Shown: positions 8,217-42,475 of the stretch, one piece after another | Layout: the number at the start of each line of letters is the position of its first letter | Numbering within the stretch: position 1 is the stretch's first letter | Source of the DNA: Rebecca billardiae RCC1528 | Lineage: Eukaryota > Protista > Haptophyta | Length of the DNA stretch: 64,000 bases | NCBI GenBank assembly: GCA_965240325.2 | Contig: OZ251247.1 | Location: forward strand, 806,001-870,000 | Direction of reading: 5' to 3' | The notes under the pieces: generated by a model | Databases searched by the model: none | The model's input: only the letters and a program-made list of their open reading frames with translations | Told to the model about the DNA's origin: nothing | Program-made: the position numbers and the translations under genes

Positions 8217-8252
8217 ATCGGCCAATCCCGGACGCCACAGCAGCAGGGGGCA

Positions 8253-11600: not shown

Positions 11601-11812
11601 AGTCGTCGGGCAGCCCATCGTAGCCCTGTGCAGCAGCCCACCACAGCGACGACCAGTAGCGGCGCAGTAATTCCTCACTGATGTGATATGACACCATCAA
11701 GGGTGGTCGACTGGTCTGCTATTGTACTCTGCTTGATGCGCTACTGACGGCCGAGGACCCGCCAAGCATTTGCGCGCAGCACATCGCGCTGCGGCAGCGC
11801 ATGCGAAGTGCG

Positions 11813-13327: not shown

Positions 13328-13649
13328 TGGCGGCGGCGTTCTGGCGGCATCGTCCGCTGCTACATGATACATGTGGGGCGGTAGTCGCCCGGTAACAGTA
13401 AACAGTTCGTACGGCGTAGTTAGCACTACTCAGTCACGGCGGGACAGCAGCCCTGTGACAGCCTCAGCCACATCCATCTGGCGCAGTGACAAACAACTGA
13501 GGGCCGTGCAGTGAGTCCTGACCGGGCGGCCGAACCGGAAGAACCGCCGCGCGAGAAGGGCGAGGGACACGGGGCCAACGCGACAGCCACTCTGGAACTC
13601 GGCCAGCAGCGCTTGACGCGCAGCAGCGCAGATCGAATAAGTGCGAGCG

Positions 13650-20601: not shown

Positions 20602-21437
20602 TCACACTCGCTGCTCTGGCGGCGCCATCTCTGCCGCGCCGCTCGCCGCGGCGCGCGGCGGCGAGGGCGGACCGGGCGCGGCGCCCGCGTCGTCGCCCGC
20701 GGCGCCGCCCGCCTCCGCCGCGTCCTCCGCCTCCTCCTCGTACTCAGTCTCGTCATACTCGTCGTACTCGGCTTCGTCGTCCTCCTGCGCCAGCGCCGCA
20801 GCCACCGTCACCTCCGCCGCGGCGCGCGCGGCGCGCGCGACCGCGGCGGCGAACGGCGGCGGCGGGCCTCCGAGCAGCGCGAGCGCGTCGGCGGCTGCGG
20901 CGGCGGCGGCTGGGTGCGCGTGCGCGAACGCGGCGTCTGCGGAGTGGTCGCCCGCGCCCGCCGCGGCGCGCACCGCGGCGCGCACGCGCGGCAGCAGCTC
21001 GCGCACGCACTCGTTGACCGCCCGGACACCGGCCGCCTCGACGAGCGCGATCAGCCGCGCCCGGACCAGCATGGCGCCCGCCGCGTCCGCCGCGCCCTCC
21101 GCAAAAAACGTCGACGGGCGGAACGGCGCGGTCGTGCCCCGGACTGCCAGCATGGCGCCCGCCGCCGCCGCGTCCGCCGCGCCGGCGGACGCGTGGACGC
21201 CAACGCCGCCGCACGCCGCCGCGGCCGCCGCGGCCGCCGCGCCGCCGGCCGGTGGCGCCGGTAGCTGCAGCGGCCGCGGCGGCGAGGGCAGCGGCGGCGG
21301 CGTGCCCGGCGCGGCGGGCGGCGGCGGCGGGGACGGCGGCGGCGCGCGCGCGTTCGGGTTGGGCCAGCTGAGCTCCGCTGACGACCACATCACGTGGAAC
21401 GCGTCGACCGCGGCGATGAGAGACTGCCCGGACGCGC

Positions 21438-21468
<31 letters not shown>

Positions 21469-22427
21469 GGCAGCCGCGCCGCCGCCCCACCCGCCGAAGC
21501 CGCCGCCGCCGCGCTCGCGCGGCGACGGCAGCGGCGGCGGGGGGGACGGCGTCCGCGAGCGCGACGCGCGCGAGGTGGGGCGCCGCCCGGAGGTGGCGGC
21601 GCCGCCCGCGCACGCGCCCGCGCACGCGCCGCCGGCGCCAACACCCGGACCGGACCCACCGCCAACGCCGCCAGCCGGACTGGGGAGCACAAAGGCGCAC
21701 GGCAGCGCAAACTCGCCGCCGCCCGCCGGCCCGCCGCCGCCGGGCGCCGCGCAGCCGAGCGGCGCCGACGACGCGCCGGCGCCGGCGGCGGGAACACCGG
21801 CGGTAACGGCGGCGGCGCCGCCGCCGTCCGCGGCACTCGAGCCGCGCGCCGCCTCGCCGCCACCCGCCGACGCGCGCGCCGCCTCGCCGCCGCCCGCCGA
21901 CGCGGACGCGCGCGACGCGAGCGACGCCGCGGACCCTCGTGAGGAGGAGGCGCGGTGGAACCTTCCGGGAAAGTTCAGCGGGTTGAGGTTCTGCGCGAGG
22001 GCGGCGGCGAGGGACGGGCGACGTGGCGCCTCCGAGATTGCAATCTCGGCCGCCCGGCGTGGCGCGTGGTGCGGCAGCGCGGCGGCGGCGCCACCACCGC
22101 CGCCGCCGCTCGCGCCGGGCGGCGGCGGCGGCGGCTCGGCGGCGGCGGCGGCCGGCGGCGCGGCCGCGGGCCATGCTGCCGCGCCGCCGCCCGCGCCAGC
22201 GGTCGAGATTGCAATCTCGCCGCGGCGGCCGCCGAGCGGCGCCGGCGATTCGGGTCGGCTGCCGCCGCTGCACCGAGCGACGGGCGGCGACTCGGGCTGG
22301 CTGCCGCTGCCGCCAGCGCCGCCGCCGCCATGCTGGCTGCTGCCGCGCTCACAGCTGCCGCCGCTGCCGCGCTCGGCGCTGCTCCCGCCGAGATTGCAAT
22401 CTCGGCCGCCGCTGCCGCGCCCGCCGC

Positions 22428-22458
<31 letters not shown>

Positions 22459-24466
22459 GCTGGTCAGAGTCTGGCTGCTGCTGCGGCTGCCCTGGCTGCC
22501 CTGCCGCGTGCGCCGCGCGCGCCGCCGGCCGCCGCCGTCCGCGCCGCCGCCCCACGCGCCGCCGCCGCCGCCCGCCCCCGCGCCAGCCGGCCCGGACCCC
22601 CCGGACTCTGTAACGAGCGGCAGGACCGTTACTTCCCAGGCGTAACCGCCAGTCGCCCGCCACGCCGCGAGCATGCATGCGGTTTCGAGGCAGTCGAGCG
22701 CCGCGGGGCCGAGCAGCCAGAGCAGCCGGCGGCACAGGCACAGCACCGCCGGCAGCTGCGCCACCGCCTCGCCCTGCGCCGGGGCGGGTGAGTCCGTTTT
22801 TTGTTTTTTTTGTTTTTTGGTTTTTTTTTTTTCGCGGGGGTCCGGAGGTGTCGTCAGCGGCGCGGCGCGGCGCGGCGCGCGTGGCGCAGGGCGGCGGCGC
22901 GCGGTGTGTGCGGCGGCGTGTGTGTGCGCGCGCGCATGCGTGTGTGTGCGGCGTGTGTGCGTGTGCGGCGGCGGCGGTGTGCGCGCGGCGCGGCACGCGC
23001 GGGGGTGCGCGGCTTGGCGCGGCTTGGCGCGGCTTGGCGCGGCTTGGCGCGCGCGCGGCGCAGCGCGCACCGGTGTGAGCGAGGGGTCGGCGCACGCCTC
23101 CGCGAGCCACACGGTGGGCGGGGCGCCCATCGCGCCCTCCCAGTGCGCCGAGAAGGTTCTCAAAGCCTCCACCTTGAGGTGATTGTAAGCCGCGTCCGCC
23201 GCGGAGTGCAGCACGAAAAAATCCACGCGCGGCCGCGGCGGCGCGGGCGGCAGCCGCAGCAGCGCGGCCGCGGCGCCGTCCGGCGCTAAGGCGGCGGCAC
23301 CGGCGGCGGCGGCGGCGGCGGCGGCGGTTGCGGGCGGCTGCAGCGGCGTCGGCGCGGCGGCGGCAGCCTCCGCCGCGCCCGCCGCGCCCAGCGCCGCCGG
23401 CGGCAGCGAGTGCGGCGGCGTGCCCTCACCGCCGCGCGCGGGCATGCTGCACCGCCGCCGCGCAGCCGCCGCCGCCGCCGCCGCCGCCGCCGAGCCGCCA
23501 GCCGCGCCCGCGCCCGCGCCCACAGGCAGTGAGCCGCGCCGCCGCGCGCCCGCGCGCCGGCCCGCCGCCGGCCCGCCGCCGCCCTGGCTGGGGCGCAGGC
23601 GCGGGCTCGGTCCGGCCGAGGCGTGCCCCGAGTCCGGGCGCGACGAGTCCGGGCGCGACGGGCGGCGCGAGCCGGGCTGCGACGGGCGTCGCGACTCGCG
23701 CGAGGACGCGGCGGTTGAGACAGGGAGGCCGAGCTGCTGCTGCAGCGCGGCGCACGCCTCCGCCTCGGCGGTGGGCGACTCGACGAGCGCGGCGAATGTG
23801 GGCGGGTAGGGCGAGGGGTAGGGTTGGGGGTAGGGTTGGGGGTAGGGTTGGGGGTAGGGTTGGGAGGGGTAGGGTTGGGCGGCGCCGCCGCCCTCTGCGC
23901 CGTCGGCGGCCGCCGCCGCCGCCGCGCCGGAGCCGCCGAGCCCGCCGCCGTCGCCCGCGCCCGCGCCCTGCTGCGCGCGCGCCGCGGCCCACGGCGCGCA
24001 CGGGTGCCCACCGCCGCCGCCGCCGCCGCCGCCGCCGCACGTCGAGAGCGACGACGCGCGCGACGCCGAGCAGACGGACGAAGTCCGGGAGTCCGGGAGT
24101 CCGGTCCGGCCGTCCGGCCGCTCGCAGATGGACGAAGTCCGGGAGTCCGGCGCGGAGCGCGGCGGCGAGGGCCCGCCGCCGCCGAAGCGGGCGGGCGGCG
24201 TGGGCGGGCGCGAGCCGGACCCACCCGGACCGCCCAGTCCGGACGAAAAGTCCGGCTCGGCGAGCACGCGCAGCACGCGGCCGAGCTGCTCCGGGTGGCG
24301 CGGGCCGGACGCGGCGGCGGACGAGGCGAATGACGAAACCGAGACCGCCGGTCCGGACGCGGCGGACGCGCCCGACGCGGCGGTGGCGGCGGAGGCGACG
24401 GAGGTGGTGGACGAGCGGCGCGAGCGCGCGCCACCGCCACCGCCGGCACCGCCGCCGGCACCGCTC

Positions 24467-24516
<50 letters not shown>

Positions 24517-24517
24517 T

Positions 24518-24551
<34 letters not shown>

Positions 24552-27500
24552 TCCCGCCGCTCCCGCCGCCATGCTGATGCTCCCGGAGCAGCAGCGAGCT
24601 GAGGGCGTGCGCCCAGCTGCCGCCGCCGGTGCCAGCATGGCCGCCAGCATGGCCGCCAGCATGGCCGCCGCCGCCGCCGCCGGCTGCGGGCGCGCCGTCC
24701 GCCCCCGCCGCGGCGCCGCCGGAGCCGGCGCCGGCGCCGCGGCGCGCGGGCGACGGCGCGGCCGGTGGCGTGAGCCGCGCGGACGCCGTGCGCGAGCGCT
24801 GGAAGCGCGCGCCGCGCGCGGCGGCGCCGGCGCCGCCCTCCGACCAGCGCGTCGCCGCCACCGCCGGCGGCGGCTGCGGCGCGCCGGCCGCACCGTCGGC
24901 GCCGCCCGCGGCTGCGCCGCCGCCGGCCGCCGCGCCGCCGCCGCCGCTCGCGCCCACGCCGCGCGCCGCCGCCTCAGTCGGCGGGAGGCGGAGGCTGCCG
25001 AGCGCGCCCACCCCCGAGCCGATGCGTACGGTACGCGCCGCCGCGGCCGCCGATGACTGCGCCACTGCCGCCGCGTGGCCCGGGCCAGGGGCGGCGACGG
25101 TGTGGCGGCGCGGCGGCGGCGGCTGGCCGGCGCCGCCGGTGCCAGCATGGCTGCCGTCAGCATGGCCGCCGCCCTCAGCATGGCCGCCGTCAGCATGGCC
25201 GCCGTCAGCATGGCCGCCGTCAGCATGGCCGCCGTCAGCATGGCCGCCGTCAGCATGGCCGCCACCGCCCGTCTCGTCGTCCGCACGCACAGGCGACGCG
25301 GGCACGCGGCGCAGCGGCGACGGCTGCTGCTGCGGCTGCTGCCAGCGCGGCGGCGCGGCGGCGCCGCCGCCGCGCCGGCGCGCGGGCGAGCCGCCGGCGC
25401 TCCAGAGTCCGGAGCCCGCGCGTCCGGGGCCGGCGAGTCCGGCGCCCCAGAGTCCGGCGCTCGGCGTCGGCGACTCGGCCGAGCCCCCGGACTCGTCGAG
25501 CGCGGCGGAGCAGCTCGACTGCTCGCCCGACGCGCGCGACCCGCCACCGCCGCCGCCGCCGCCGCCGCCAGCGTCACACGAGCACCACCCGCCGGTGTCG
25601 CCAGCGGCGGCCGCGGCGGCGGCGGCGGCCGCGGCCGGACTCGCGGGCCCCGGACTCGCGGGCCCCGGACTCTGGAGCGCCACGGAGACTCGGAACGACG
25701 CGGGCTCGGAGGCGGAGGCGGAGGCGGAGGCGGAGGAGGACGGCGGCGAGAGCTGCGGCGGGCGGCGGATGGCGAGGCGCGACGCGCCCGCGCCCGGCGC
25801 ACCGCCGCCCGCCGCCGCCACCGTGCCTGCTGCCACGGGCGGCGGCGGCGCGCCGCCCGCGCCCGCCGGCGGCCATGCTGCCGGCGGCCATGCTGCCGGC
25901 GGCCATGCTGACGGCAGCCATGCTGGCAGCAGCCGCTCGCGCGAGAACGTGTCCAGCGGCGCGGGCGAGAGGAGGCGCTCCGCCTCCGCCACGACGCTGC
26001 GGGCGGGCGGGCGCAGCGCGCGGGGAGGGTTAGGGTTAGGGTTAGGGTTAGGGTTAGGGTAGGGTTAGGGCGGGGCGCGTCAACGGCGGCTGCGCGCGAG
26101 CGGCTGCTGCCAGCATGGCTGCCGTCAACGGCGGCAGCAGCCGCACGCGCGTCCGGACCCGACGTCCTAACCGAACCCTACCCCTGACCCGACGTCCGGA
26201 CGCCCGGCGCCCCGCGCTCGCCGCTCGGGCGCGCCCGCGGCGGCGCAGCGCGAGGCGCGCGGCGCGGCGCGGCGGCGCGGCGCGGCGCGGCGGCGCGCGG
26301 CGCGCAAAGACACGCGACGGCGACGCGCGGTGCGCGGCGCGCGGCGCGCGCGCACCGCGCCGCGACCGCGCCGACGTCGGCCAGGTCGAGCGCGCCACCC
26401 CCGTGCGACCAGAGCCCCGCGGCCCACGCCGCGGCGGCGCCCGCGCCCGCGCCGCCTGCCCAGGCTGCGCCGCCGTCCGCCGCGCCATAGCCGCCGGCCG
26501 CGGGCGTCACGGCGGGCGTAACGGTATTCGTAACGGTCGGCAGCGCGTCGTACGCGCCGAGGAGCGCCGCCAGCGCGCCAATGGACGGCGGCGGCTCGGC
26601 GTGGGCGTCGGCAACGCTCAGCGGTGAGTAGTCCGGCGAGCCGCCCCCGCCGCCGCCGCCGCCGCCGCCGCCGGGCGGCGCGGCGGGCTGCGGCGCGGCC
26701 GCGCCGCCGCCGCCGCCGCGGCCGCTCCCGCCGGCGTAACCGCCGGCGTAACCGCCGCGCTGGCTGGAGCGGCGCGAGGACGCGCCGGAGCGCGCGGCGC
26801 GGCTGCTCCCGCCGCTCCCGCCCACCGCGCCGCCGCCCGCCGCCGACGGCGTGAGCGAGCCGCGCGGCGTCAGCATGGCCGCCGCGCCGCCGCCGGCGCA
26901 AGACAGCATGGCCGCCGCGCCGTGCGGAATCAGCATGGCCGCCGGGCCGCCGAGAGAGCCGCGCGGCGAGAGCATGGCTGAGGAGCGCGAGGCGTCGGAG
27001 GGCGGCCATGCTGAATCAGCATGGCCGCCGCGCCGTGCAGAACCGGCATGGCCGCCGGCGTGCGAGACGTCGTCGAGCCGCGCCGCCGCCGACGACGCGT
27101 CCCCTAACACCACCCAGCGCGCGGCGGGCGCGCAGCAGCAGCAGGCGGCGCGCAGCGCCGCGGCCGCGGCCGCGCGCGCGCCGCCGCTCGGCGCCGCGGC
27201 GGCGGCGCCGAAGGCGCGCGCGTGCGCGCGCACCGCGGCGTAGCGCACGCGCGGCGCGGCACAGACGAGGCCGGCGCCGCCGAGGGCGAGCGCCTCGAGC
27301 AGTCGCGCGACCGTCACGCCCACGAGCGCGCCCTGGTCGCCGCCTTCGCCGCCGTCGCCTTCGCCGCGGCCGCGCCGCGCGGCCGCGGCGGCGGCGGCGC
27401 CGAGCGCGGCGGCGGCGGCGCACGCCAATGCTTGCGCGCACGCCCACGCGCCGAACGCGCGCCACAGCGGCGGCGCGGCGGCGGCGGAGGCGAGCGCGGG

Positions 27501-27609
27501 GCGCCACGACGCGCCGCGCCCGATGCCGCCGCCGCCGCCGCTGCTGCCACGCCGCGACGCCGGCACCGACGCCACCAGCCCGCCGCCGCCGCCGCCGCCG
27601 CCGCCGAGC

Positions 27610-27645
<36 letters not shown>

Positions 27646-28894
27646 ATTCCGCCGCCGCCGCCGAGCGAGCTTCGGCGCGAGGCGAGGCTGCTCGCGCGCG
27701 AGGGCGCGGCGGAGGCGGCGGCGCTGCCTCGCGAGCCGCGGCGCACGGCGGCGAGCGCCGCGGCCACGCTCGTCGCGACCGCGCCACCGCCCTCGCCGCC
27801 GCCGCCGTCCGCGCCGCCGCCGCTCCCACGCCGCCGCGCCCATGGCGCGCCGCCGCCGCCGCCGCGGCCGCGGCGGCGCGGCCGCGCGCGCGTCGCGACG
27901 AGGGCGAGGGCGAGGGCGAGCGGCAGCGCGGCGCGGAGGGCGGCGAGGCCCCACGCCGCGGCGCACAGCGCGCTCAGCCGCTCGGCGCCGCCGCCACCGC
28001 CGTCACCGCCGCTGCCGCCGCCGCCGCCCGGCGCCACCGCCGCCGGCGGCGGCGCGCCGGCGGCGGTGGCGCCTGCGGCGTGCGCGTCGGCGCCGGCCGC
28101 GCCGACCGCGCCGTCGCCGCCGCCGCCGTCGGCGGCGGCGGCGGATGCCGGCGCGGCGGCGAGCGCGAGCGCGCCGCTAAGCAGCTGGCACGCGGCGCAC
28201 AGCGCGCACGCCGCGAGCGCCGCCGCGGCGGCGCGCGGCCGCGGCTGCGTCGCGGCGGCGACGACGGCGGCGGCGGCGGCGGCGGCGGCGAGCGCGCCGC
28301 CGAGCGCCGCCAGCGCGGCCGCTGCCACGGCCGCCGCGGCCGCGTGCGGCAGCAGCAGCGCGCCGACGGCCGCGTGCGCACGCACGCCCGCGAGCGCGCC
28401 CGCCGCCGCGTGCGCCGCCGCCGCGAGCGCCGCCGAGCCCAGCGCCGCTGTCAACACCGGCACCGCAACGCGCGCGCGCTGCCGCTGCGCGCGCGTGAGC
28501 GCTAGTGCGCATAGCGCGGCCGCGTCGCGGCCGTGGCGCGCGCTCACCGCCTGCTCCTGCAGTGAGCGCCGCCGCGGGGCGCTGCCGCCGCCGCCGATGC
28601 TGCCGCCGCCCAGCGCCGCCGCGCCGCCGCGGCCGCAGCTGCTGCCGCCGCCGACGGCGCCGAGCCCGCCGCCATCGGCGGCGCCGGCCGCCGCCGAGGC
28701 CGCGGCCGCCGCCGCGCCGGCGTCCGCGGCGGCGCGCGCGGCCTCGCCGCCGCCGCCGCCACCGTCCGCGTCCGCGGCCGCGGCAACGCCGGCGGGCGGC
28801 GGCGTCAATGCGGGGCCACCGCCGCCACCGCCCGCCGCCGCCGCAGACGCCACCGCCGGGAGGAGCGGCTCTTCCGAAGAGCCGCGCCGCGTGC

Positions 28895-28948
<54 letters not shown>

Positions 28949-31900
28949 ACAGCGCAAGCGGCTGCCGCCGCGCGAGCGCCGCCAGCTGCGCGTCGGCCGC
29001 GCGCGCGCCCGCCGCGGCGCGCGGCAGTGGCGCCGCGCCGCCCTGCTCGGCGGGTGCGCCGCCGGCGCTCGCGGCGGCCAGCGGCGGCGCGCGCCGCGCG
29101 CGCGCTGGCGGCGTGGCGCCGCCCGCCGCCAGCCGCCACGGCGCGCGCGCGCCGCCGCACGCGCCGCCGCCGCCGCCCTCGCCGTCCGCGGCCGCGGCCG
29201 CGGCGGCGGTGGCAGCCGCCGCCCGCGCCGCGCCGCCGCCCGCCGCCGCGCCTCCAAAGCTTCCGCCGAAGCTTCCGCCGACGCTTCCGCTCGCGCCGCT
29301 CGCGCCGCCGAAGCTCCCGCGCGCACCGCCGCCATCCCCGCCACCACCGCCGCCGCCCCACGCCGCACCAGCCGACGCCGCCTCCGCCCTCGCCGCCTCC
29401 TCCGCGCACAGCGTCGCATGCGTCGCCAGAGCAACCTCGTTGTAAATCTCGCGCAGGAGCGCGAGCACCGCGGCGGCGTCGACGGCGTGCTCGGGCTCAA
29501 TAAAAAGACGCGCAGCGGCGTGCGGCAAGTCTGAGAGCGGGCGCGCCGAGTCGAAGCGGCGCGCGTGCGGAGGAGGGCGCGGCTCCGAGGGTGGCGGCGC
29601 GCCGTCGGCACCGCCACCGCCGCCGGCACCACCGCCGTCGGCGCCGGCAGCCGCGCCACCGCCGCCGTCGGCCGCCGCCGCCGCCGCTTCGAGCGCCTCC
29701 GGCGGCGGCAGCGGCAGCAGCGGCGTTTCCGCCTCGGCGCCGGCGGCCGGAAAGTGCATGCGCGTGACCGGCAGTGCCGCCATCAGCGTCACCACTGCGC
29801 GGGGGCGGGGAGGCGGGCGGCAGCCGGCAGCAGGGGGGGCGGGGAGGGTTGGGGGCGGGGCGTCAGGGCGCGCGCGTTTTCTCGGCGTCAGCGCGTGCGG
29901 GCTGGGCGGGCGAGACGCCGCGCGATGTGACGCGCCGGCGCGCGCGCGGCACGGGCGCAGCAGCGGCGAGGCGGTCGGTCGCAACCTCCGCCGAGGGAGA
30001 TTGCAATCTCCCTCGGCGGGAGATGGCGGCCGCCTCCCACCACGCAGCACGGTCGCACCAAGCCACCCCCCGCGGGGAGATTGCAATCTCCCCGCAGGCG
30101 GCAGGGGGGGTGCGCGCACCGTCGTAGGGCTTGACATAGCCGTTGAGGTGCGCGACTATGTCCGCCTCTGGCCCGAGTCTTGCCAGCCCGCGCGCGTCGA
30201 ACTCGGCCGCGTCCACGCCGCAGAAGGTCTGCGCCGTTGGGGTGAGGGTGAGGGTGAGGGTTAGGGGTAGGGCAGGTGCAGCCGGCGGAGGGCGCGAGCG
30301 CACGCACGGCGCACGGCCGCACGCCAGCGCGCGCATGCACCCTCGCGCGCAGCCGCGCGCGTCCTACTACGCGTGCGTAACCGGCGTGTAACGGGCGTGC
30401 AACGGGCGCGTAACGGGCGTGCGCAGCCGCGCGCGCGCGCATACCCCAAAGTACCACCGCTTGGTGCAGCGCGCGGGCAGCTCGCCCCTGCACAGCTTGT
30501 TCCACAAACCCTCCAGGCCGAGGAACTGCGCGTTGGCCAGGTAGCGCAGCACGGGGCAGTGCGTTCGCTCTGCAAAGGAGCGAGCGAGCTGCGCGCGCCG
30601 GTGAGGGGGGGAGGGGGGGTGGGGGGCGGTGAGTGCGGCTGGCTGCGCGGGCGGCGGGGCGCACACACGGCGCGCGCATGCGCCCGCACCGCGCGCGCAT
30701 GCGCAGCACACGCTGCACGCATCGCACGCAGACACGCAGACACTGCGCGCGCAGCGGACGCGCGGTGTACACAGCCCCACAGGCACGCAGACACGCACGC
30801 AGAGTGCACGCACTACAGACGCGCGTAGTGCGCACGTTACACGCCCGTTACACGCCCGGTACAACCCCCGTCCCACCCCGCGCGGCGGCGCACCTGCATC
30901 GGCAGCAGCGGCACCGCGTTGCGCGACACGACGACCAGCGGCACGCGCCTGCGCACGGCAAAGGAGTAGACAGCGGTGGCGGCGGCCGCGTCAAACTGGT
31001 TGTTGACGGAGGTGTCCGCGAACCAGCGCCCGCCGCCCGGGCTGGCGGCCACCGGCACCGCGCCGGGCGGCGGCGAGGGCGGCGGCTCCGCAGCGCCGCC
31101 GCCGGCGGCGGCCTCGGCGGGTGGCGGGGGGGCGGCGGGGGCAGGGGCTACATGCAGCAGCCCGCCCATGATAGTTAGGCAGCGCAGCTGCGCGCCGCGG
31201 GGTGGGTGGGTAGGGTTGGGGGTAGAGTTGGGGCTCAGCGAGGGCAGTGGGGACGGGGCGGGCGCAGCGCGGCTCGCCGCGACCCGCCGCTGGGGGTAGG
31301 GTTGGGGGTAGGGCTGGGGGGTAGGGCTGGGGGGTAGGGTAGGGTAGGGCGCCGCGCGCGCACCTTGCGAGCTAGCAGCGCCTCCCCCCCCGGCTCGGCG
31401 ATGCAGTCCGCCACGTCGCGCAGGCTCGAGATGCACACCAGGTCGAGCGATCTCGCGCGCGCCTCGTGCAGCGTGCGCCGCAGCAGCGCCGCGCCTGGGG
31501 TTCGACGACCCGGCAAAAGCAATTCATCACAAATAAGTCGAGCGCAATAAAGATGGACCCGAGTGTGCAAGCGAGCGAGCGCGTGCAAGCGCGAGCGCGT
31601 GGGGGGCGGGGGCGCAGGTGGGGATGGTGCGGGGAGCGGGTTGGTTGGGGTGCGCAGGTGGGGCCAGACGGCGCGGGGAGGCTCATGCGCGTGGGCTCCA
31701 CGGCGCGTGCACGGACGGGCGGGGGGGAGGGCGGCCGCGCGCCGCGCCAGCCACGCGCCCCCCCCCTCCCTGCAATGGCCGCCGTTGGGTCGAGCGCACG
31801 CCCGACCGCCGCGCACCGAGCACACGCGCGCACGCGCACGCGCGCGCACGCACGGCGTAGGAGCGCGCGCGCGCGCTGACGCGGCGGAGCCGCCGCGCGC

Positions 31901-32107
31901 GCCGCCCGCACCGTTGTGTAACCGCCGCGCGTCAATCGTCTCGTAACCGCCTATGCGGAATTCGTGCGGTAACGGCGCCGAGTACTTACCCGGCGTGCCG
32001 ACGCCAACCGGCACGGTGTCCGGGGGCGGGGGCGGCGGCTGGCGCGCGGAGCCGGCGGCGGAGCCCCCCGCCGCCGCGCCGCCGCCGCCGCGTCCCTTGG
32101 ACGACGA

Positions 32108-32138
<31 letters not shown>

Positions 32139-33372
32139 CGCGTGCCGTGGCCGGCGCCAGCGCCGCCGCAGTCGCCCATCGCAGCCTCCACGTCCGCCGC
32201 CGCCGCTCCCGCCGCGGCGGCCCCCGCCGAGCCCGCCCCGCCCGCGTCGTCCCCACCCCCGCCCGCCGCTCCGAACCCAGCGCCGTCCGCCGCCGCCGCC
32301 GGCAGCCCCCCCCCCACCGGCCCCATCCCGACCAGGTCCAGGACACGGCGCGCGAGCCGCGCGCGCTGCGCGGGCGCGCCGCCGCCGTTGCACACGACCG
32401 CGCGCAGCCGGAGGTAGCCCCTGCCGTGCAGCACGGCGGCAATCAGGAGCGCCTGCGCCGCGGGCGAGGCGGGGCCGTCGGGGGGAGCCGCCACGTGAGG
32501 CAAGCGCGGAGCGAGGCGCCCGGCCGGCGCGCGGGCGGCGCGCTTGGACGCAGCGGCGGCGGCGGCGCGGGGCGGCGGCGCGCGTGGGCGCGGCGGCGGC
32601 GCACCTTCACGTCATCCGGGTCCGGGCCTGTTGCGCGTGCGGGGCGCGCGCACCGGACGGGCGGCCAGAGCGCGCGCAGCGGCGGCGGCGGGGGCGGCGG
32701 GGGCGGCGGGGCGGGGCGACACGCGCACGGCTCAGCAGCGGAAGGCGCGCGCAGGCGCCGCGGTAACACACCGCGCGCGCACGCACGCGCACGGCGAGGC
32801 GGCGAGCGCGCAGCCGCGCGCGCGCGCGCACCCGGGTCCGTGATCAGCACGATGTCCGGCCGATGGCCGCGCGTCGAGAGCGGCGCGGCCAGGGTCCGGT
32901 CCGCCACCGAGCGCGCGGCGGCGCCGATGGCGGCGGCCGCGGCGGCCGCGGCGGCCTGTGGCCGCGCCGAGTCGGCGGAGGCGCGGCGGCTTGTGCGGGC
33001 GCTGCCCGAGCCGCCACCCTGCGGCGCGGCGCGGCCCGCGCCGCGTCGCCACCCCAGCGCCGAGCCGCCGCTCCCGCTCCCGCCGCCGCCGCCGCCGCCG
33101 CCGCGGCCGATTGACGGCAGCAGCCGCGTGCGGCCCTGCCGCCGCGTGCCGAGCTCGGGGGAGGCGGTGGAGTGGCTGCTCGCCGGGCTCACGGTGTCAC
33201 GCCCTGAACGCCGCGCGAGCTCGCCCACCGCGCCCGCGCCCGCCGGCGCGGGCCGCGCGGGCGCATCCGCGCCCGCCCGGTTGTCAAGGCTGCCGCTGCG
33301 GCCGCCGCCGCCGGCCGCGCCGCCGGCCCCCGGCGGCGCACCCGGCGGCACGATGGCGACGAGCTCGGCCAT
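20602..33372 (-). CDS. ~3439-aa multidomain protein: XopQ/HopQ1-like nucleoside-hydrolase domain + multi-pass TM block + degenerate TIR-like domain
   Basis: Ten exons joined by GT-AG introns with consistent phases: 33372-32832, 32627-32605, 32452-31912, 31494-31364, 31187-30894, 30588-30445, 30228-30120, 29794-26356, 25996-23071, 22773-20602 (total 10320 nt, divisible by 3). Hydrolase motifs: IVLITDPGPDPDDVKAL, LVCISSLRD, IMGG, DTSVNNQFD, KPYDVVTL. About 6-7 hydrophobic segments at 27250-28470. TIR-like motifs: RVDFFVLHSAAD..KVEAL..PTVWLAEACADP..LPAVLCLCRRLLWLLGP. Confidence 0.75.
25143..25260. repeat. 15-bp coding minisatellite (CAGCATGGCCGCCGT)n encoding GGHAD repeats
   Basis: Read directly; the same core recurs at many sites in the window. 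Confidence 0.85.
26027..26069 (-). repeat. Interstitial telomeric repeat (TTAGGG)n near an intron 3' end (CCCTAA on the transcript strand)
   Basis: gggttagggttagggttagggttagggttagggtagggttaggg, about 30-70 nt upstream of the acceptor at 25997. Confidence 0.9.
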
Positions 33373-34674: not shown

Positions 34675-36287
34675 ATGGCTCGGACGCGACAGCGCAGCTG
34701 CGCGACGGCTCGTGCGCGCGCCCTCTCGAGCTCGCCGTCACAACCGCCGCTGGCGAGCCTGCCCCTGGAGCCGGTTGAGCGCATCCTGCACCATCTCGAA
34801 GCCACGCGTGATCTCGCCGCCGCCAACGCCGCCTCGCGCCTCTTCCGCGGCGCGCCGGGCGGCCGCTCGCCGGTCGAGCACGCGCTGCGTGCGCGCGCGC
34901 GCGCGCGCGGGCACGAGCGCGCGCTGCCCGCCGAGCTGCCCGCGATGGTTTGCACGTGGACCGAGTAGCTCCTCGCTCGCGAGCGCGTGCTCGAGCGTGC
35001 GCGTGCTCACGAGAGCGTCGTGGCCGCAGGCGGATTGGACAAGGCTGGCTTCAGCGCGTTTGTGGACGCGGAGGGCGGGCTGCACACGTGCGGCGAGGAG
35101 CAGGTGCGGGACGAGGACACTGGGGTGCGGACGGAGGAGTACCGCGCGCACGCGGCGCTGGGCCACCCTGGCGCCAATCCGGTGCGCCTTCCGACGCGCG
35201 TCGCCTCGCTCGGTGCGGTGCGCGTGGTCGCGGTGGCCGCTGGCACCCACCACCTGCTCGCGCTGAGCGATGCTGGGACGGTGTACGCGTGCGGCGGCAG
35301 GTGGAGCGGCCAGCCCGGGCACGGTGGCATGGCCATGCGACGGGTGTTCGAACCAGTGCGGCGTCTCGGGGCCCAGGCCGTCGTTGTAGGCATCGCCGCA
35401 GGCGGTTGGCACAGCCTCGCGCTCACCGCCGCCGGCTGTGCTTACAGCTGGGGCAACAACTGTTACGGCCAGCTCGGCCACGGCCACGGGAAGGACCGGT
35501 GGGATCCGACGCGCATCGAGGCGCTGGGCGGCGTGCGCGTGGCCGGGGTGGCCGCGGGCAGCGGGTTCACTCTGCTGCTGTCTGCGCGTGGCGCCGTGTT
35601 CTCATGCGGCCACGGCTTATTCGGCCAGCTCGGCCACGGCGGCACGCAGGATCAGCACACGCCGAGGCGCATCGAGGCGCTCGCGGGCGTGCGCGCGGTG
35701 CACGTGAGCGCGGGCGCTGCTCACAGCCTGGTGGTGGTCGCAGACGGCAGCGTGCACTCCTTCGGCTATGGCGAGCGAGGCGGCCTCGGCCATGGTGACG
35801 CTGCCAACGAGTGCATGCCCAGGCGGATCGAGGCACTTGCAGGCATGCGCGCCGTGCACGCCAGCGCTGGCTGCAACTGCAGCGCCGTGCTGGGCGCGGA
35901 CGGCAGCGTGCACACCTTCGGGGACCAGCGCAACGGCCAGCTGGGGCTCGAGGTGCCTGCAGCGAGCGCTGTGCAGCCCACGCGTGTGGCTGCCCTTGCG
36001 CAGGTGCTGGCTGGTACTCTCCGCCATCGCACTCTGTGCCCGCCGAGTAACGATGGCGGCGCAGTCCGGAGGAGAGTACCAGACAGGCGCAGGTGCGTGC
36101 AGTGGGCTGCGCCCTCAGCCTCCACCACGCGCTGTACGCCACCGCAGACGGTGGCGTGCACTCGTGCGGCAGGAAGTCGGCTGCGCTGGGCCTCGGGCTG
36201 AGCGCCGCTGCTGACGATGGCGACGCCGAGGCTGAGCACGTCGTCCGCTCGCTCACGCGCATCGCGCACCTGCCGCGCGTGCACTAG
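34675..36287 (+). pseudogene. F-box-like + RCC1-repeat pseudogene, copy 5
   Basis: In-frame GAG->TAG at 34966-34968, where copy 8 reads WTEELF. An 89-bp frameshifting MITE+TSD insertion sits at 36007-36095; removing it restores AQVRAVGCALSLHHALYATADG. Confidence 0.88.
36007..36086. mobile_element. 80-bp MITE with 16-bp TIRs and a 9-bp target-site duplication
   Basis: TIRs CTGGCTGGTACTCTCC / GGAGAGTACCAGACAG (15/16 complementary). TSD GCGCAGGTG at 35998-36006 and 36087-36095. Absent from all paralogs. Confidence 0.9.
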
Positions 36288-36628
36288 CCGCTAAGTTGGC
36301 GCGGCATCCGGTACGCTCTTGCTGATGACGAGACGAGGGCTCTGTAGGCGCCGTGGGCGCCATGCTCGGGCGCCTGGCCATACAGCAGCAGCCTGGACTA
36401 CTCCATGTAGCTACCTAGAGGCCACGCAGCGACACGGACGCGCGTACCATAGTGAACGGTCGTCACGCCTCGCCTATCGCCATTCGCCTCGCCAGGCGCC
36501 ATCCCGCGGCCGCTCCGAAGTGAAAGTGAAAGTCCGGCGAGGGCTGGAGAGCTGCGGATCCCGCTCAGTGTGCAGCCGTAGCTCCGTGCCGAGCCCGTGC
36601 CCTGTTGATCAGCAGCAGCAATTGAGCA

Positions 36629-38185
36629 ATGGGTGCTCGGACGCGACAGAGCAGCGGCGCGGCGCGTGCGCGCGCCCTCGCGACTAGCTCGCCGTCGCAG
36701 CCGCCAATCGCTGGCCTGCCCCCGGAGCTGGTTGAGCGCATCCTGCACCACATCGACGCCCCGCGTGATCTCGCCGCCGCCAACGCCGCCTCGCGCCTCT
36801 TCCGCGGCGCGCCGGGCGGCCGCTCGCCGGTCGAGCACGCGCTGCGCGAACGCGCGCGCCTACGCGGACACGCGCGCGCGCTGCCCACCGAGCTGCCCGC
36901 GGGCTCGCGCACGTGGTCTGCTGAGCTCTTCGCGCGCGAGTGCGTGGCTGCGTCCGCACGTGCGCACGCGGCCGTCGTCGCGTGCGGTGACAACTTCAGC
37001 GCGTTTGTGGACGCGGAGGGCGGGCTGCACACGTGCGGGGAGGAGGAGGAGGAGGACGAGATCACCGGGGAGCTAACGGGGGGGACCCGCTCGCCGGCGG
37101 CGCTCGGCTACCTGGACCTCTCGGCTCTGCGCCTACCGACGCGCGTGGCCTCGCTCTGCGCGGTGCGCGTGGTCGCGGTGGCCGCTAGCTACCACCACCT
37201 GCTCGCGCTGAGCGATGCTGGGACGGTGTACGCGTGCGGCGAGAACCACGACGGCCAGCTCGGGCTGGGGGACACGGCCACGCGGCGGGCGTTTGAGCAG
37301 GTGCGGGGGCTCGAGGCTGAGCCCGCCGTATGCATTGCCGCAGGCTCGGGGTATAGCCTCGCGCTCAGCGCCGCGGGCTGTGCGTACAGCTGGGGCCGCA
37401 ACGGCTGTGGCCAGCTCGGCCACGGCGACGCGAAGGAGCGGTGGGAGCCGACGCGCATCGAGGCGCTGGACGGCGTGCGCGTGGGCGGCGTTGCAGCTGG
37501 GGCTGGACACACGCTACTGCTCTCGGCGCAAGGCGCGGTCTACTCGTGCGGCTGGGGCTACAAGGGCCGTCTCGGCCACGGCGACGAGCAGGATCAGCAC
37601 ACGCCGAGGCGCATCGAGGCGCTCGCGGGCGTGCGCGCCGTGCACGTGAGCGCGGGCGAAGCTCACAGCCTGGTGGTGGACGCATCGGGCAGCGTGCACA
37701 CCTTCGGCGTGAGCTTAGGGGGCGCCGTCTGCCATGTCGCCGACGGCAACCACACCCAGTCCGTGCCCAGGCGCATAGTGGGGCTTGCAGGCGCGCGCGT
37801 CGTGCGCGCGTGCGCTGGCCTCGACAGGAGCGCGGTGCTGGGTGCAGACGGCAGCGTGCACACGTTCGGGGACAACGACCACGGCCAGCTCGGACCCGAC
37901 GGGGTGGCAGCGAGCTCGGAGGAGCCCGCGCATGTGACCGCTTTCGGTCAGACGGGCGTGGTGGACTGCGCGCTCGGTCAGGTCCACGCGCTGTACGTCA
38001 CGGCGGACGGTGGCGTGCACGCGTGTGGGACGCGGTGTGCGGCGCTCGGCCTCGGACTGAGCGGTGCTGCTGACACCGCTGGCGACCCCGAGGAGGAGCA
38101 ATTCCACCCGCTCACGCGCATCGCGCACCTGCCGCGCGTGAACTCATGCAGGATCGGCGAGATGGCGGTTCGCGCTTGCGGCTAG
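36629..38185 (+). CDS. F-box-like + RCC1-repeat protein, copy 6
   Basis: IAGLPPELVERILHHIDAPRDLAAANAASRLF F-box-like motif, seven RCC1 blades, intact ORF. Confidence 0.9.
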   Translation: MGARTRQSSGAARARALATSSPSQPPIAGLPPELVERILHHIDAPRDLAAANAASRLFRGAPGGRSPVEHALRERARLRGHARALPTELPAGSRTWSAELFARECVAASARAHAAVVACGDNFSAFVDAEGGLHTCGEEEEEDEITGELTGGTRSPAALGYLDLSALRLPTRVASLCAVRVVAVAASYHHLLALSDAGTVYACGENHDGQLGLGDTATRRAFEQVRGLEAEPAVCIAAGSGYSLALSAAGCAYSWGRNGCGQLGHGDAKERWEPTRIEALDGVRVGGVAAGAGHTLLLSAQGAVYSCGWGYKGRLGHGDEQDQHTPRRIEALAGVRAVHVSAGEAHSLVVDASGSVHTFGVSLGGAVCHVADGNHTQSVPRRIVGLAGARVVRACAGLDRSAVLGADGSVHTFGDNDHGQLGPDGVAASSEEPAHVTAFGQTGVVDCALGQVHALYVTADGGVHACGTRCAALGLGLSGAADTAGDPEEEQFHPLTRIAHLPRVNSCRIGEMAVRACG

Positions 38186-38461
38186 ACGCGCGCGCACAGC
38201 GAGGCCAGGCTACCGCCGAATTCGTCGGGGGCGGGGGCGGGGGCGGGGGGCGTTCCATCACTCATCGTCGGCGATGGCCGATGAGTGATAGATGACGATC
38301 GAATTTAGGCCGCCGCCCCGAATCTCATACGACATGATGACGATGAGCAGAGTACTTTCAACTTGGCTGCTGGAAAAGAGGAAAGCCCCGCCTCCGCCCG
38401 CCCGCCCAGTGCCCTGCCCATCATCCCCGCCTCGCGCCCGCCCATCATCGGCGGCACATCA

Positions 38462-39979
38462 ATGGTTGTTCGGACGCGACAGAGCAGCGGCGCGGCTCGT
38501 GCGCGCGCCCTCGCGACGAGCTCGCCGTCGCAGCCGCCAATCGCTGGCCTGCCCCCGGAGTTGATTGAGCGCATCCTGCACCACGTCGACGCCCCGCGTG
38601 ATCTTGCCGCCGCCAACGCCACCTCGCGCCTCTTCCGCGGCGCGCCGGGCGGCCGCTCGCCGGTCGAGCATGCGCTGCGCGCGCGCGCACATGCTCGCGG
38701 ACACGCGCGCGCACTGCCTGCCAAGCTGCCCGCGGGTGCGCGCACGTGGTCTGCTGAGCTCTTCGCGCGCGAATGCGTGGCCGCGTCCGCACGTGCTCAC
38801 TTGTTCGTCATCGCGTGCGGCGACAACTTCAGCGCGTTTGTGGACGCGGAGGGCGGGCTGCACACGTGCGGCGAGGAGCAGGTGGAGTGGGATGGGCTCG
38901 AGCCAACGGGGGCTTACCACGTGCACATGGCACTGGGCCATCCTGACGTCACGCCAGTGCTCATACCGACGCGCGTCGCCTCGCTCAGCGAAGTGCGCGT
39001 GGTCGCTGTGTCCGCTGGCTACCGCCACCTGCTCGCACTGAGCGAGGCTGGGACGGTGTACGCGTGCGGCAACAACAGCTGCGGGCAGCTCGGGCTCGGG
39101 GGCACGAAGGATCGGCGGGCGTTTGAGCAGCTGCAGGGGTTCGAGGCCGAGGTCATCGTGTGCATTGCCGCAGGCGGGTTCAACAGCCTCGCCCTCACCG
39201 CTGCTGGCAGTGCGTACAGCTGGGGCGCCAACGAGTGCGGCCAGCTCGGCCACGGCGACAGGAAGGAGCGGTGGAAGCCGACGCGCATCGAGGCGCTGGA
39301 TGGCGTGCGCATTGGCGGCGTGTCCACGGGAGAGGGCCACCCGCTGCTGCTCGCCGCATGCGGGGCTGTCTACTCGTGTGGCTATGGCAACCCTGGCCAG
39401 CTCGGCCACTGCGGCCAGCAGAATCAGCACATGCCCAGGCGCATCAAGGCGCTCGCGGGCGTGCGCGCCGTGCACGTGAGCGCGGGCGAGGCGCACAGCC
39501 TGGTGGTGGACGCAGCAGGCAGCGTGCACTCCTTCGGCTGGGGCGAAGGCGGCTCTCTCGGCCACGGCGACGAGGCCATCCAGCGCGTGCCCAAGCGCGT
39601 CGAGGCGCTGGCGGGCGTGCGTGCAGTGCGCGCGTGTGCTGGCTACTGGATCAGCGCGGTGCTGGGCGCGGACGGCAGCGTGCACACGTTCGGGGACAAC
39701 AACAACGGCCAGCTGGGGCTCGGCGAGGCGGTGGTAACTGTCGCTCAGCCCACGCGCGTCGCTGCCTTCGAGCAGACGCGTGTGCTGGACTGCGCGCTCG
39801 GTCAGGTCCACGCGCTGTACGCCACTGCGGACGGTGGCGTGTACTCGTGCGGCAGGCAGTCGGCTGCGCTCGGCCTCGGGCTGCGCGCCACTGCAGAGGA
39901 TCCGCGGGACGCCGATGCTGAGCGCGTCCACTCGCTTACGCGCATCGCGCGCCTGCCGTGTGTGTGGCGGCGGCCTTAA
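38462..39979 (+). CDS. F-box-like + RCC1-repeat protein, copy 7
   Basis: ATG 38462 (MVVRTRQSSG) matches paralog starts; seven RCC1 blades. Confidence 0.9.
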   Translation: MVVRTRQSSGAARARALATSSPSQPPIAGLPPELIERILHHVDAPRDLAAANATSRLFRGAPGGRSPVEHALRARAHARGHARALPAKLPAGARTWSAELFARECVAASARAHLFVIACGDNFSAFVDAEGGLHTCGEEQVEWDGLEPTGAYHVHMALGHPDVTPVLIPTRVASLSEVRVVAVSAGYRHLLALSEAGTVYACGNNSCGQLGLGGTKDRRAFEQLQGFEAEVIVCIAAGGFNSLALTAAGSAYSWGANECGQLGHGDRKERWKPTRIEALDGVRIGGVSTGEGHPLLLAACGAVYSCGYGNPGQLGHCGQQNQHMPRRIKALAGVRAVHVSAGEAHSLVVDAAGSVHSFGWGEGGSLGHGDEAIQRVPKRVEALAGVRAVRACAGYWISAVLGADGSVHTFGDNNNGQLGLGEAVVTVAQPTRVAAFEQTRVLDCALGQVHALYATADGGVYSCGRQSAALGLGLRATAEDPRDADAERVHSLTRIARLPCVWRRP

Positions 39980-40189
39980 GTTTCGGCGCGCGGCATATCC
40001 GCCGCGGACCGATGGCGATCCGCGTGACGGACTGCGATCGGACAGAGGTCATTATCATTATAATCCCGACTACTGTATTCTGACGACGCCTATCTGATGA
40101 GCGCTAGATATAGCGCGCAGCGTGGTACTTGACGCGCGGACAAGATCGAGTGATTAGATCACCGCGACAGCATCAAGTCGTGTATAGAC

Positions 40190-40193
40190 AAGA

Positions 40194-40233
<40 letters not shown>

Positions 40234-40365
40234 CGAGAGCTAGAGAGAGAGAGCAGAGAGTAGAGAGAGAGAGTGACGCCGAGAGTCAGAGAGAGAGAGT
40301 CCGAGAGACGATCGAGATGAGAGAGAGAGAGCTAACGGAGCTAACGGAGAGAGAGAGAGAGAGAG
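40190..40365 (+). repeat. Imperfect (GA)n microsatellite field
   Basis: Read directly. Confidence 0.9.
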
Positions 40366-42279: not shown

Positions 42280-42475
42280 GACCGTCTGGTTCTGCGACGG
42301 GCGACGGCCGGCCGGGCCGCGGGGGGGCTTTCCCTTCCAGTTCGGCTCAACTCCCGCGCGCCCAGGCCGGCCACTCCGGACCAACCGGCAAGGAGGAGCC
42401 ACCGGACCGGGCGGGGAGGGCTCCGGACAGCCGGAGCGCAAAGGGCCCGCCTTCCCCGTTCGATCAGCGCCAGCA

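Follow-up and report, generated by a model that had tools for sequence, protein, structure and literature searches.

A Haptophyte Gene Linking a HopQ1-like Hydrolase to a TIR-type Domain through Predicted Membrane Helices: A Candidate Eraser of TIR-made Cyclic ADPR

Introduction

The bacterial effector XopQ converts 2'cADPR into ADPR by hydrolysis, in a reaction that requires D120 and D399 and whose turnover is near diffusion-limited, while 2',3'-cAMP/cGMP and 3'cADPR are not substrates (10.64898/2026.06.15.732069). According to the same preprint, which makes no mention of eukaryotic homologues, XopQ blocks type VI Thoeris without being part of it. An open and an ADPR-bound closed conformation of XopQ are known, its active site is plugged by plant Roq1, and further substrates have been reported for HopQ1/XopQ. 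The proteins of this clan (HopQ1-like proteins, HLPs) carry the non-canonical calcium motif DxxxDxDD (PMC11685791).

On the side of the TIR domains, a haptophyte TIR study describes multi-TM TIR genes that respond to virus infection, and states that microalgae have so far no described TIR-based antiviral system (PMC12489294). An algal TIR from a clade said to include haptophyte TIRs makes 3'cADPR (eukaryotic TIR tree, 10.64898/2026.04.20.719644). The gene described here, a fusion of both domain types, bears on the question of how unicellular eukaryotes make, read and switch off TIR signals.

Gene Structure and Coding Evidence

The gene occupies positions 20602..33372, on the minus strand, of the window, i.e., the whole 64-kb stretch of contig OZ251247.1 of Rebecca billardiae RCC1528 that was analysed. 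Its protein of 3439 aa comprises a HopQ1-like hydrolase, six predicted membrane helices, a TIR-type domain and long low-complexity inserts. In the splice model of the window sequence, ten exons join to 10320 nt (3439 codons and a stop) with no internal stop; all nine introns have GT–AG borders, and eight of them start with GTGCG. Codon position 3 is the A/T minimum in all 11 segments of the gene model (p<0.05 in 10), and the same periodicity test is flat in 9/9 introns (p 0.27–0.99). Profiles built from homologues only match the model colinearly, with 377 bits for the hydrolase and 103.5 bits for the TIR-like domain, whereas the reversed model and 200 shuffles all score below 0 bits. The exon-limited codon bias and the stop-free spliced frame thus indicate, at the level of sequence, that a gene with both domains is real, and together with the colinear profile matches they bear out the original prediction of a single spliced gene with nine GT–AG introns and about 3439 aa, whose quoted motifs are all present in the protein. 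No second copy of the hydrolase or the TIR domain was found in the 64-kb window. Sequence beyond the conserved blocks takes up 2642 of the 3439 aa (about 77%) and is 78% A, G, P, S and R in composition.

The hydrolase is spread over eight exons. Exon 1 (32832..33372, aa 1–180) encodes a low-complexity N-terminus and the beginning of hydrolase strand 1 with Asp179, and the 23 nt of exon 2 (32605..32627) finish the calcium motif (D179, D183, D185, D186). Exon 3 (31912..32452) carries a Gly/Ala-rich insert at aa about 237–333; an earlier donor in this exon, GGTAAGT at about 31990, was discarded because the 26 codons that follow it match the family profile. Hydrolase sequence continues through exon 4 (31364..31494), exon 5 (30894..31187, motifs DTSVNNQFD and SR), exon 6 (30445..30588), which holds the lid region with L538, W539 and W555 and whose translation is 74–85% identical to 25 database proteins, and exon 7 (30120..30228) with F560, Y593 and D594. 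Exon 8 (26356..29794) contains the end of the hydrolase (to about 29418) and the membrane block between two linkers. Exon 9 (23071..25996) encodes a juxtamembrane helix (VVAEAERLLSP), a low-complexity insert of about 900 aa and, from 23226 onward, the initial half of the TIR core, whose second half (to 22603) is found in exon 10 (20602..22773) together with Met2750 (22674–22672), distal TIR blocks (21432–21373 and 21072–20962) and an acidic tail. Intron 9 (22774..23070, 297 nt) is in frame and without stops, and the TIR profile match becomes continuous by its removal.

Hydrolase Domain

The sequence DPGPDPDD at aa 179–186 is the DxxxDxDD motif of HopQ1-like proteins. Among solved structures, XopQ is the best relative in sequence searches (E 7.6e-23 versus 0.2; profile 2.6e-26 versus 6.8e-7) as well as in fold comparisons (Z 35.9, rmsd 3.2, 321 aligned; Foldseek E 1.7e-14 versus 3.2e-7), ordinary nucleoside hydrolases reaching a Z of at most 27.9. 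A quick tree of 82 rows, in which the canonical enzymes are E. coli RihA/B/C only, splits these from all HopQ1-like rows (100/100). Sequence, profile, fold and tree therefore agree with the earlier assignment to the XopQ/HopQ1 type rather than to the housekeeping enzymes, even if the identity to HopQ1/XopQ is only 28–29% (19–23% to housekeeping nucleoside hydrolases). Homologues score on PF01156; a Pfam scan of 12 pieces of the window gave nothing significant, nor did single-exon queries against PDB sequences.

With XopQ residue numbers transferred through the 7JLU alignment (inferred offset 13), the counterparts of D120, D399, L345, W361, F366 and Y398 are D183, D594, L538, W555, F560 and Y593. 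The XopQ phosphate contact Y311 falls in a gap of the alignment of homologue P0006, whose local motif the window protein shares. As judged from these residues, the hydrolase site is intact, with the catalytic aspartates and most ADPR contacts kept, a pattern no less compatible with binding than with catalysis.

The original prediction also considered an integrated effector-like decoy. Nine spliceosomal introns, a membrane block and eukaryotic relatives set the gene apart from type III effectors, which are bacterial, intronless, soluble and secreted. The hydrolase belongs to an algal HopQ1-like clade that had been described before and is not a recent effector capture. In the same tree, the bacterial XopQ/HopQ1 pair groups with tandem algal hydrolases (94/84) and not with the window subfamily. 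Nothing favours a decoy: no NB-ARC/NACHT or LRR Pfam matches occur on the 12 window pieces or on the scanned homologues.

Membrane Block and TIR-Type Domain

Six Ala-rich hydrophobic segments (27249..28475, aa 1035–1443) are predicted membrane helices. Their hydrophobicity sums are comparable to those of the six helices of homologue P0031 (KAJ1636960.1), and against the family profile the segments fall in colinear order, with a score that is not significant. The whole-chain model of P0031 (935 aa, pLDDT 84.5, pTM 0.82) places six long helices between the domains. The multi-pass block of the original prediction is retained as a predicted feature, and its count of six to seven helices narrows to a likely six. 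Given this even number, predicted on P0031, the hydrolase and the TIR domain would lie on the same, presumably cytoplasmic, side. The block is the least conserved part of the family (16% median identity among homologues), and a comparison of the membrane block with the Atlas gave no named family and, with TM under 0.4 by query, nothing of the channel or receptor type.

The TIR-like domain runs from 23226 to 20962, interrupted by long low-complexity inserts; it had been located correctly, and its bounds (23230–20990) are slightly refined. In the model of the C-terminal domain of P0006 (pLDDT 81), the family domain is predicted to take the TIR fold with its five-stranded parallel sheet, as had been proposed: Foldseek finds the RUN1 TIR (E 7.9e-5), 36 of the 37 matches listed are TIR-bearing, the top VIA rows are also TIRs, and the RPP1 TIR superposes with Z 9.9 (rmsd 3.6, 137 aligned). 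The fold is carried over to the window protein by the 103.5-bit profile match. Pfam TIR models score neither on the window nor on any of six family TIR domains, and word-based searches with the TIR region returned 1 and 4 proteins only.

The catalytic Glu of helix C is kept in 20/30 family TIRs; in the window protein, Met2750 stands in this column of an ungapped alignment. Because of this replacement, the window TIR is unlikely to act as an NAD+-cleaving enzyme, and the signal-making role first suggested for it loses ground. Another Glu (E2746) is located four residues before Met2750. The motif of P0061 (SHSW, WIDK, DQ) is, furthermore, no longer complete in the family TIRs. Repeated loss of the Glu would match 7 changes of its status on the tree (6–8 in bootstraps), but one origin alone is not rejected either (p-AU 0.24).

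Homologue Family

Both domains are present in 25 of 45 long homologue clusters, complete transcript ORFs among them, and in two domain orders, since P0061 and P0076 have the TIR before the hydrolase. The other 20 clusters, which comprise tandem hydrolases, fusions to WD40 and truncated forms, have no TIR match, so that a hydrolase of this type must also serve without an attached TIR. Single HopQ1-like domains are known as well, as are tandems and combinations with WD40, lectin or sulfotransferase domains. The Asp at the XopQ D399 column is kept in 28/31 rows, the W361 and F366 columns in all 31, and the catalytic aspartates in 17 of the 20 rows that cover them. Median identity among homologues is 49% for the hydrolase versus 30% for the TIR, a difference inflated by the gathering of homologues through hydrolase similarity. 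With at least nine matches of Diacronema lutheri paralogues to the exon 6 query, the window gene belongs, by sequence, to an expanded family of haptophyte-type proteins.

The hydrolase profile gave 26 pattern matches in viral contigs, none of them confirmed, and 28 in GTDB genomes, likewise none confirmed, the patterns of the latter search being too specific for relatives at 28% identity. The metagenome search with this profile returned 2 loci.

Proposed Function and Alternatives

With moderate confidence, we propose that the window protein is a membrane-anchored eraser of TIR-made cyclic ADPR, acting as an off-switch of algal TIR signalling. Its XopQ-type hydrolase would destroy 2'cADPR, or an isomer close to it, that TIR domains have produced; XopQ itself cleaves 2'cADPR and not the 2',3'-cyclic nucleotides that had first been suggested (10.64898/2026.06.15.732069). 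The N-terminal hydrolase and the C-terminal TIR of a six-pass protein would face the same side of the membrane. In Glu-bearing paralogues, one chain could both write and erase the signal, and such writer-plus-eraser receptors may set a threshold or a timer. The GGDEF–EAL and RelA/SpoT fusions combine writer and eraser in this way for other messengers. The window copy, whose hydrolase site is intact but whose TIR lacks the glutamate, would represent a form that erases without writing, anchored in the membrane and probably recruited to active TIR assemblies via TIR–TIR contacts. We infer the substrate, the direction of regulation, this recruitment and the immune role. Points against the proposal include the absence of a counterpart of XopQ Y311 in a hydrolase of such low identity to HopQ1/XopQ, the 20 long clusters in which the hydrolase lacks a TIR, the membrane block without a significant profile score, and the one algal TIR tested in the literature consulted, whose product 3'cADPR is not cleaved by XopQ.

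Conservation of the site could also mean that the hydrolase is the receiver of the signal, a reading that we consider rather improbable. Binding of cyclic ADPR or ADPR would close the lid and switch the membrane bundle or the TIR, and hydrolysis would only reset the sensor, in a eukaryotic counterpart of the Thoeris membrane effectors ThsG or Macro-TM ThsA. The open and ADPR-bound closed states of XopQ are in line with it, as are the pTM of 0.82 for the 935-aa three-domain model, which suggests a fixed domain arrangement, and the type VI Thoeris effector that is activated by 2'cADPR and sometimes has membrane helices. Moreover, the TIR Glu is dispensable in 10/30 members, while ligand-contact residues are nearly invariant. 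However, catalytic aspartates in 17/20 covering rows and the near diffusion-limited turnover of XopQ suit removal better than stable sensing. The membrane block also counts against this reading, being the least conserved part (16%) and, at TM under 0.4 by query, without resemblance to channels or receptors in the Atlas.

A role outside immunity is less probable still. Here the substrate of the hydrolase would be some other metabolite, either ADPR-like or a nucleotide, and the TIR would be a degenerating scaffold derived from the large haptophyte TM-TIR family, as might be read from the family TIRs without parts of the P0061 motif, a third of them without the Glu, from the HopQ1-like domains that occur alone, in tandem or beside WD40, lectin and sulfotransferase domains, and from the other substrates reported for HopQ1/XopQ. 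Against this, two domain orders couple the same partners, of which, in plants and bacteria, one writes and the other erases a single class of molecule, and the many paralogues per genome and the fast divergence of the membrane block would be typical of conflict genes.

The co-occurrence of writer and eraser in one chain, in 20/30 members by Glu status, would likewise suit a self-guarding tripwire, in which the TIR signals constantly, the fused hydrolase removes the signal, and defence is triggered by release of the signal when a pathogen protein or molecule, or a decoy interaction, blocks the hydrolase. Since Roq1 plugs the XopQ active site, a cleft of this type can be blocked by a protein loop. 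In cis, this is impossible for the window copy with its Glu-less TIR; no viral hydrolase homologue was found (26 pattern matches in viral contigs, 0 confirmed) and no inhibitor is known, which makes the tripwire quite unlikely.

The integrity of the gene hinges on intron 8 (25997..26355, GTGCGC...CCGCAG), which contains a (CCCTAA)7.7 repeat and shows no codon periodicity. Its donor at 26355 is the sole GTGCGC donor in 26800–26000, the exon-9 frame runs for 873 codons without an ATG, and the family juxtamembrane motif has its single best match, a weak one (E 0.04–0.05), at aa 1739–1768, spanning the junction. Two genes or a decaying paralogue, with a TIR half that is non-functional or expressed separately, might account for a protein three times the homologue length, whose TIR is broken up by two inserts (about 390 and 100 aa), whose membrane helices have drifted into poly-Ala and whose Glu is lost, but are very improbable given 10.3 kb without stop or frameshift, a codon bias that is present before and after intron 8, the lack of an ATG across those 873 downstream codons, conserved blocks that are colinear from first to last and an intact hydrolase site.

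Returning to the eraser, the recurrent joining of TIR and XopQ-class hydrolase represents a Rosetta-stone link, which predicts a haptophyte TIR messenger and a host enzyme that removes it. More tentatively than for the single protein, it is conceivable that haptophytes run their own cyclic-ADPR immune signalling through six-pass chains of writer and XopQ-class eraser, with active and pseudo-TIR paralogues tuning each other, so that an enzyme class wielded as a weapon by plant pathogens would also be a host-side regulator of TIR signalling in eukaryotes. Hydrolases of novel specificity for cyclic ADPR may be present in the family, and the finding bears on the origin of XopQ.

Comparison with Known Systems

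Each of the two parts, the HopQ1-like protein and the membrane TIR, is known from algae; a literature search gave no description of their fusion in a hydrolase–TM–TIR protein, in agreement with the original view of an undescribed architecture. The HopQ1-like proteins of algae, fungi and mosses, Emiliania being among the algal members, share the clan and the motif; the modelled algal examples are double-domain hydrolases, and the TM-TIR fusion is absent from the description, whose main text uses neither the word TIR nor transmembrane (PMC6019455). The haptophyte multi-TM TIR proteins of Gephyrocapsa huxleyi likewise have membrane helices followed by a cytoplasmic TIR, but, in the accessible text of the study, they keep the Glu and no hydrolase domain is named, unlike the window copy with its hydrolase and without the Glu (PMC12489294). 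The Atlas look-alikes at 0.94–0.95 are haptophyte TIR clusters.

Type VI Thoeris (TIR and ThsG) resembles the present case in pairing 2'cADPR from a TIR with a partner that sometimes has membrane helices; it differs in that it consists of two bacterial genes and that ThsG is a signal-activated DUF6650 protein without the nucleoside-hydrolase fold. The housekeeping IU-nucleoside hydrolases (RihA/B/C, plant NRH, protist IU-NH; PF01156) share the superfamily fold and a calcium site, but theirs reads DxDxxxDD and they are soluble, single-domain enzymes. The XopQ/HopQ1 effectors (PDB 4P5F, 4KL0, 7JLU) have in common with the window hydrolase the fold (Z 35.9), the DxxxDxDD motif, the catalytic Asp pair and the base and phosphate contacts except Y311, whereas the window hydrolase is host-encoded, intron-bearing and part of a chain with a membrane bundle and a TIR domain.

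Gene Model

The gene lies on the minus strand at 20602–33372 and is read as ten exons (33372–32832, 32627–32605, 32452–31912, 31494–31364, 31187–30894, 30588–30445, 30228–30120, 29794–26356, 25996–23071, and 22773–20602), which join into 3439 codons plus a stop with GT-AG borders in nine of nine introns. The window sequence is eukaryotic and GC-rich and contains 113 ORFs of at least 100 aa; at 80–85% GC open frames carry little weight, and independent checks of the model were therefore applied. A/T is at its minimum at codon position 3 in all 11 model segments (p<0.05 in 10), and codon periodicity is absent from all nine introns and from the 900 flanking bases on each side. Profiles built solely from homologues match the model colinearly, beginning at the first strand of the hydrolase and ending at the final TIR helix; the hydrolase scores 377 bits and the C-terminal domain 103.5 bits, while the reversed model and 200 shuffles score below 0 bits. 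At the 26356/25996 junction, the sole GTGCGC donor within 26800–26000 is found at 26355, the downstream frame is free of ATG for 873 codons, and the single best match to the family juxtamembrane motif spans the junction (aa 1739–1768), albeit weakly (E 0.04–0.05). A gene split here, or one in decay, is thus very improbable, and codon bias, colinear profiles, and junction checks bear out the single spliced gene of the original prediction, with its nine GT-AG introns and 3439-aa frame. We infer splicing from sequence, since no RNA run is listed for the locus.

Intron 9 (22774–23070) is stop-free and in frame; its retention would add 99 aa to the TIR core, and it may escape gene finders. Telomere-like CCCTAA and related CCCTAC/CCCTCA repeats occur close to intron 3′ ends (26026–26070; introns 4 and 6), where they possibly act as branch-point tracts.

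Family and Architectures

An exon 6 query retrieved 25 proteins at 74–85% identity, including at least nine annotated from Diacronema lutheri and one from Pavlovales sp. CCMP2436. Among the matches listed, all named family members are from Pavlovales, and the look-alikes of the TIR in the Atlas are haptophyte clusters; a haptophyte source of the window is therefore likely. The hydrolase profile recovered 1435 clusters at a threshold of E 0.001, and 249 when this was tightened to 1e-30. Among the best 150 of the 1435, 45 reach at least 750 aa; 25 of these 45 carry a TIR-like domain (≥40 bits), each with two to six hydrophobic segments in a crude scan, and the remaining 20 comprise tandem hydrolases, fusions to WD40 or other domains, and truncated proteins. 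The homologue P0006, a complete 995-aa ORF from a transcript, contains hydrolase, membrane block, and TIR, and P0046 likewise derives from a transcript; the fusion is therefore no artefact of the window's gene model. Homologues are typically 900–1300 aa long; the window copy is enlarged by low-complexity inserts, and 2642 of its 3439 aa fall outside the conserved blocks.

In two homologues, P0061 and P0076, the domain order is reversed, with the TIR ahead of the hydrolase. Their layout runs from membrane helices to TIR to hydrolase, and the pair groups together at 98/94; the P0061 TIR has a fuller motif set including the helix-C catalytic glutamate, and a faint TIR_2 match (E 0.13). Four further proteins (P0079, P0103, P0122, and P0112) fuse WD40 repeats to a HopQ1-like hydrolase, with hydrophobic segments farther along in three; this combination is a second receptor-like layout.

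Hydrolase Domain

The closest solved protein is XopQ by sequence (E 7.6e-23 vs 0.2 for an IU-nucleoside hydrolase), by hydrolase profile against solved structures (2.6e-26 vs 6.8e-7), and by fold of the homologue P0031 (Z 35.9, rmsd 3.2, 321 aligned; next 27.9). The window sequence DPGPDPDD corresponds to the DxxxDxDD motif, described in PMC11685791 as the defining mark of HopQ1-like proteins, and its hydrolase is 29% identical to HopQ1, 28% to a XopQ, and 19–23% to RihA/B/C. In a 39-row tree and an 82-row quick tree, both with RihA/B/C as canonical enzymes and no eukaryotic housekeeping enzyme among the rows, all HopQ1-like rows separate from RihA/B/C at 100/100. Within this comparison, the predicted resemblance to XopQ/HopQ1 holds in sequence, fold, and phylogeny. 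Nothing points to recent effector capture, because the bacterial pair is nearer to tandem algal hydrolases (94/84) than to the window's subfamily.

Predicted Membrane Block and TIR-Type Domain

The whole-chain model of P0031 (KAJ1636960.1; 32-row alignment; pLDDT 84.5, pTM 0.82) has six long helices at residues 405–630, and this even count would place hydrolase and TIR on the same membrane side. In the window, six Ala-rich segments follow the same order; their landmarks can be recognised and their hydrophobicity sums are similar, but the profile score is not significant. Median identity over 18 full-length members, picked by hydrolase similarity, is lowest in the membrane block (16%, vs 49% for the hydrolase and 30% for the TIR), and no named family matched the block in the Atlas.

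Pfam does not detect the TIR-type domain, and a six-sequence profile finds four weak matches in the PDB (E 0.08–0.9), all Toll-like-receptor TIRs. The AlphaFold model of the P0006 domain (pLDDT 81, pTM 0.80; best of five, the other four at 39–56) matches the RUN1 TIR in Foldseek (E 7.9e-5), with TIR-bearing rows making up 36 of 37 among the matches listed, and the RPP1 TIR in VIA (Z 9.9, rmsd 3.6, 137 aligned). The domain is also predicted at high confidence within the P0031 model. With the 103.5-bit match to the window, this predicted fold upholds the proposed TIR-like C-terminal module.

The helix-C glutamate aligns with the TLR "WC..E" position and is retained in 20 of 30 non-redundant family rows. 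In the window, the ungapped alignment places Met2750 in this column, a replacement overlooked in the original prediction, which speaks against a nucleotide-processing TIR in this copy. The catalytic residue is missing from both the window and P0026, yet each has a glutamate four residues upstream, one helical turn off (E2746, 22684–22686 in the window). The loss may have been repeated: the tree requires seven changes, and a single origin is not rejected (p-AU 0.24). The hydrolase aspartates are lost in P0084, P0095, and P0114; P0095 retains the TIR glutamate but P0084 and P0114 do not, so all four active/dead combinations exist in the family.

Proposed Function

The observation of a fused hydrolase, predicted membrane block, and TIR-type domain was confirmed; its interpretation is only partly supported. 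According to 10.64898/2026.06.15.732069, XopQ cleaves TIR-made 2′cADPR to ADPR, for which two aspartates are required (D120 and D399 in named mutants), and does not cleave 3′cADPR or 2′,3′-cNMP. The latter contradicts an earlier report cited in PMC9963460 and speaks against the 2′,3′-cyclic nucleotide lead. Mapped through the 7JLU alignment, window D183 and D594 are the counterparts of these aspartates, and L538, W555, F560, and Y593 those of L345, W361, F366, and Y398, which are among the ADPR contacts given in 10.1101/2020.08.13.246413; XopQ Y311 has no counterpart in this alignment. We infer the enzymology from this 28%-identical bacterial relative. Where an XopQ-class enzyme and a TIR share one chain and would share one membrane face, and do so in either domain order, the simplest reading is a coupling between making and removing a cyclic ADPR signal. 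Glu-bearing paralogues would be writer plus eraser, and the window copy eraser only, its pseudo-TIR likely docking onto active TIRs. The chances of such an eraser role are evenly balanced; a ligand-gated sensor is unlikely, a non-immune metabolic role improbable, and a self-guarding tripwire slightly more so.

The chief doubt on the eraser reading is the identity of the messenger. The product of a green-algal TIR is 3′cADPR, and the clade of this TIR is said to contain haptophyte TIRs too (10.64898/2026.04.20.719644); a shift in the specificity of the algal hydrolases may therefore have occurred.

On either side of the gene lies a plus-strand run of long RCC1-repeat genes, each gene a single ORF, nine in total: 8061–15185 (8061–9815, 10005–11597, 11687–13324, and 13641–15185) and 34969–47103 (34969–36198, 36626–38182, 38309–39976, 42149–43993, and 45493–47103). 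Two of the nine have a weak F-box-like match, and tandem F-box adaptor arrays are frequently fast-evolving conflict genes. An EF-hand protein ORF (41079–41717, minus strand) lies within the second run. The nine flanking RCC1-repeat ORFs loosely suggest an immune setting.

Comparison with Known Systems

Algal HopQ1-like proteins were reported previously, without TIR or membrane parts in the searched passages of PMC6019455 and its two supplements. Among the literature matches listed (top 7–20 rows per search), in which subscription papers are thinly covered, none describes the fusion of a HopQ1-like hydrolase with a membrane TIR protein, in line with the original prediction, and no paper combined all five terms of the narrowest query; nor does the fusion appear in the available parts of PMC7075850, PMC9503650, 10.64898/2026.10.11.758280, and 10.64898/2025.12.03.692087, and "eukaryot" and "alga" are absent from the text of the XopQ preprint 10.64898/2026.06.15.732069. 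Supplementary tables of TIR surveys and PMC12489294 may list such proteins. As PMC12489294 describes, multi-TM TIR genes of Gephyrocapsa huxleyi respond to virus, which suggests an immune setting for the putative eraser. The hydrolase, membrane, and TIR parts are each already known; their fusion represents TIR signalling hardware that is found family-wide and open to testing.
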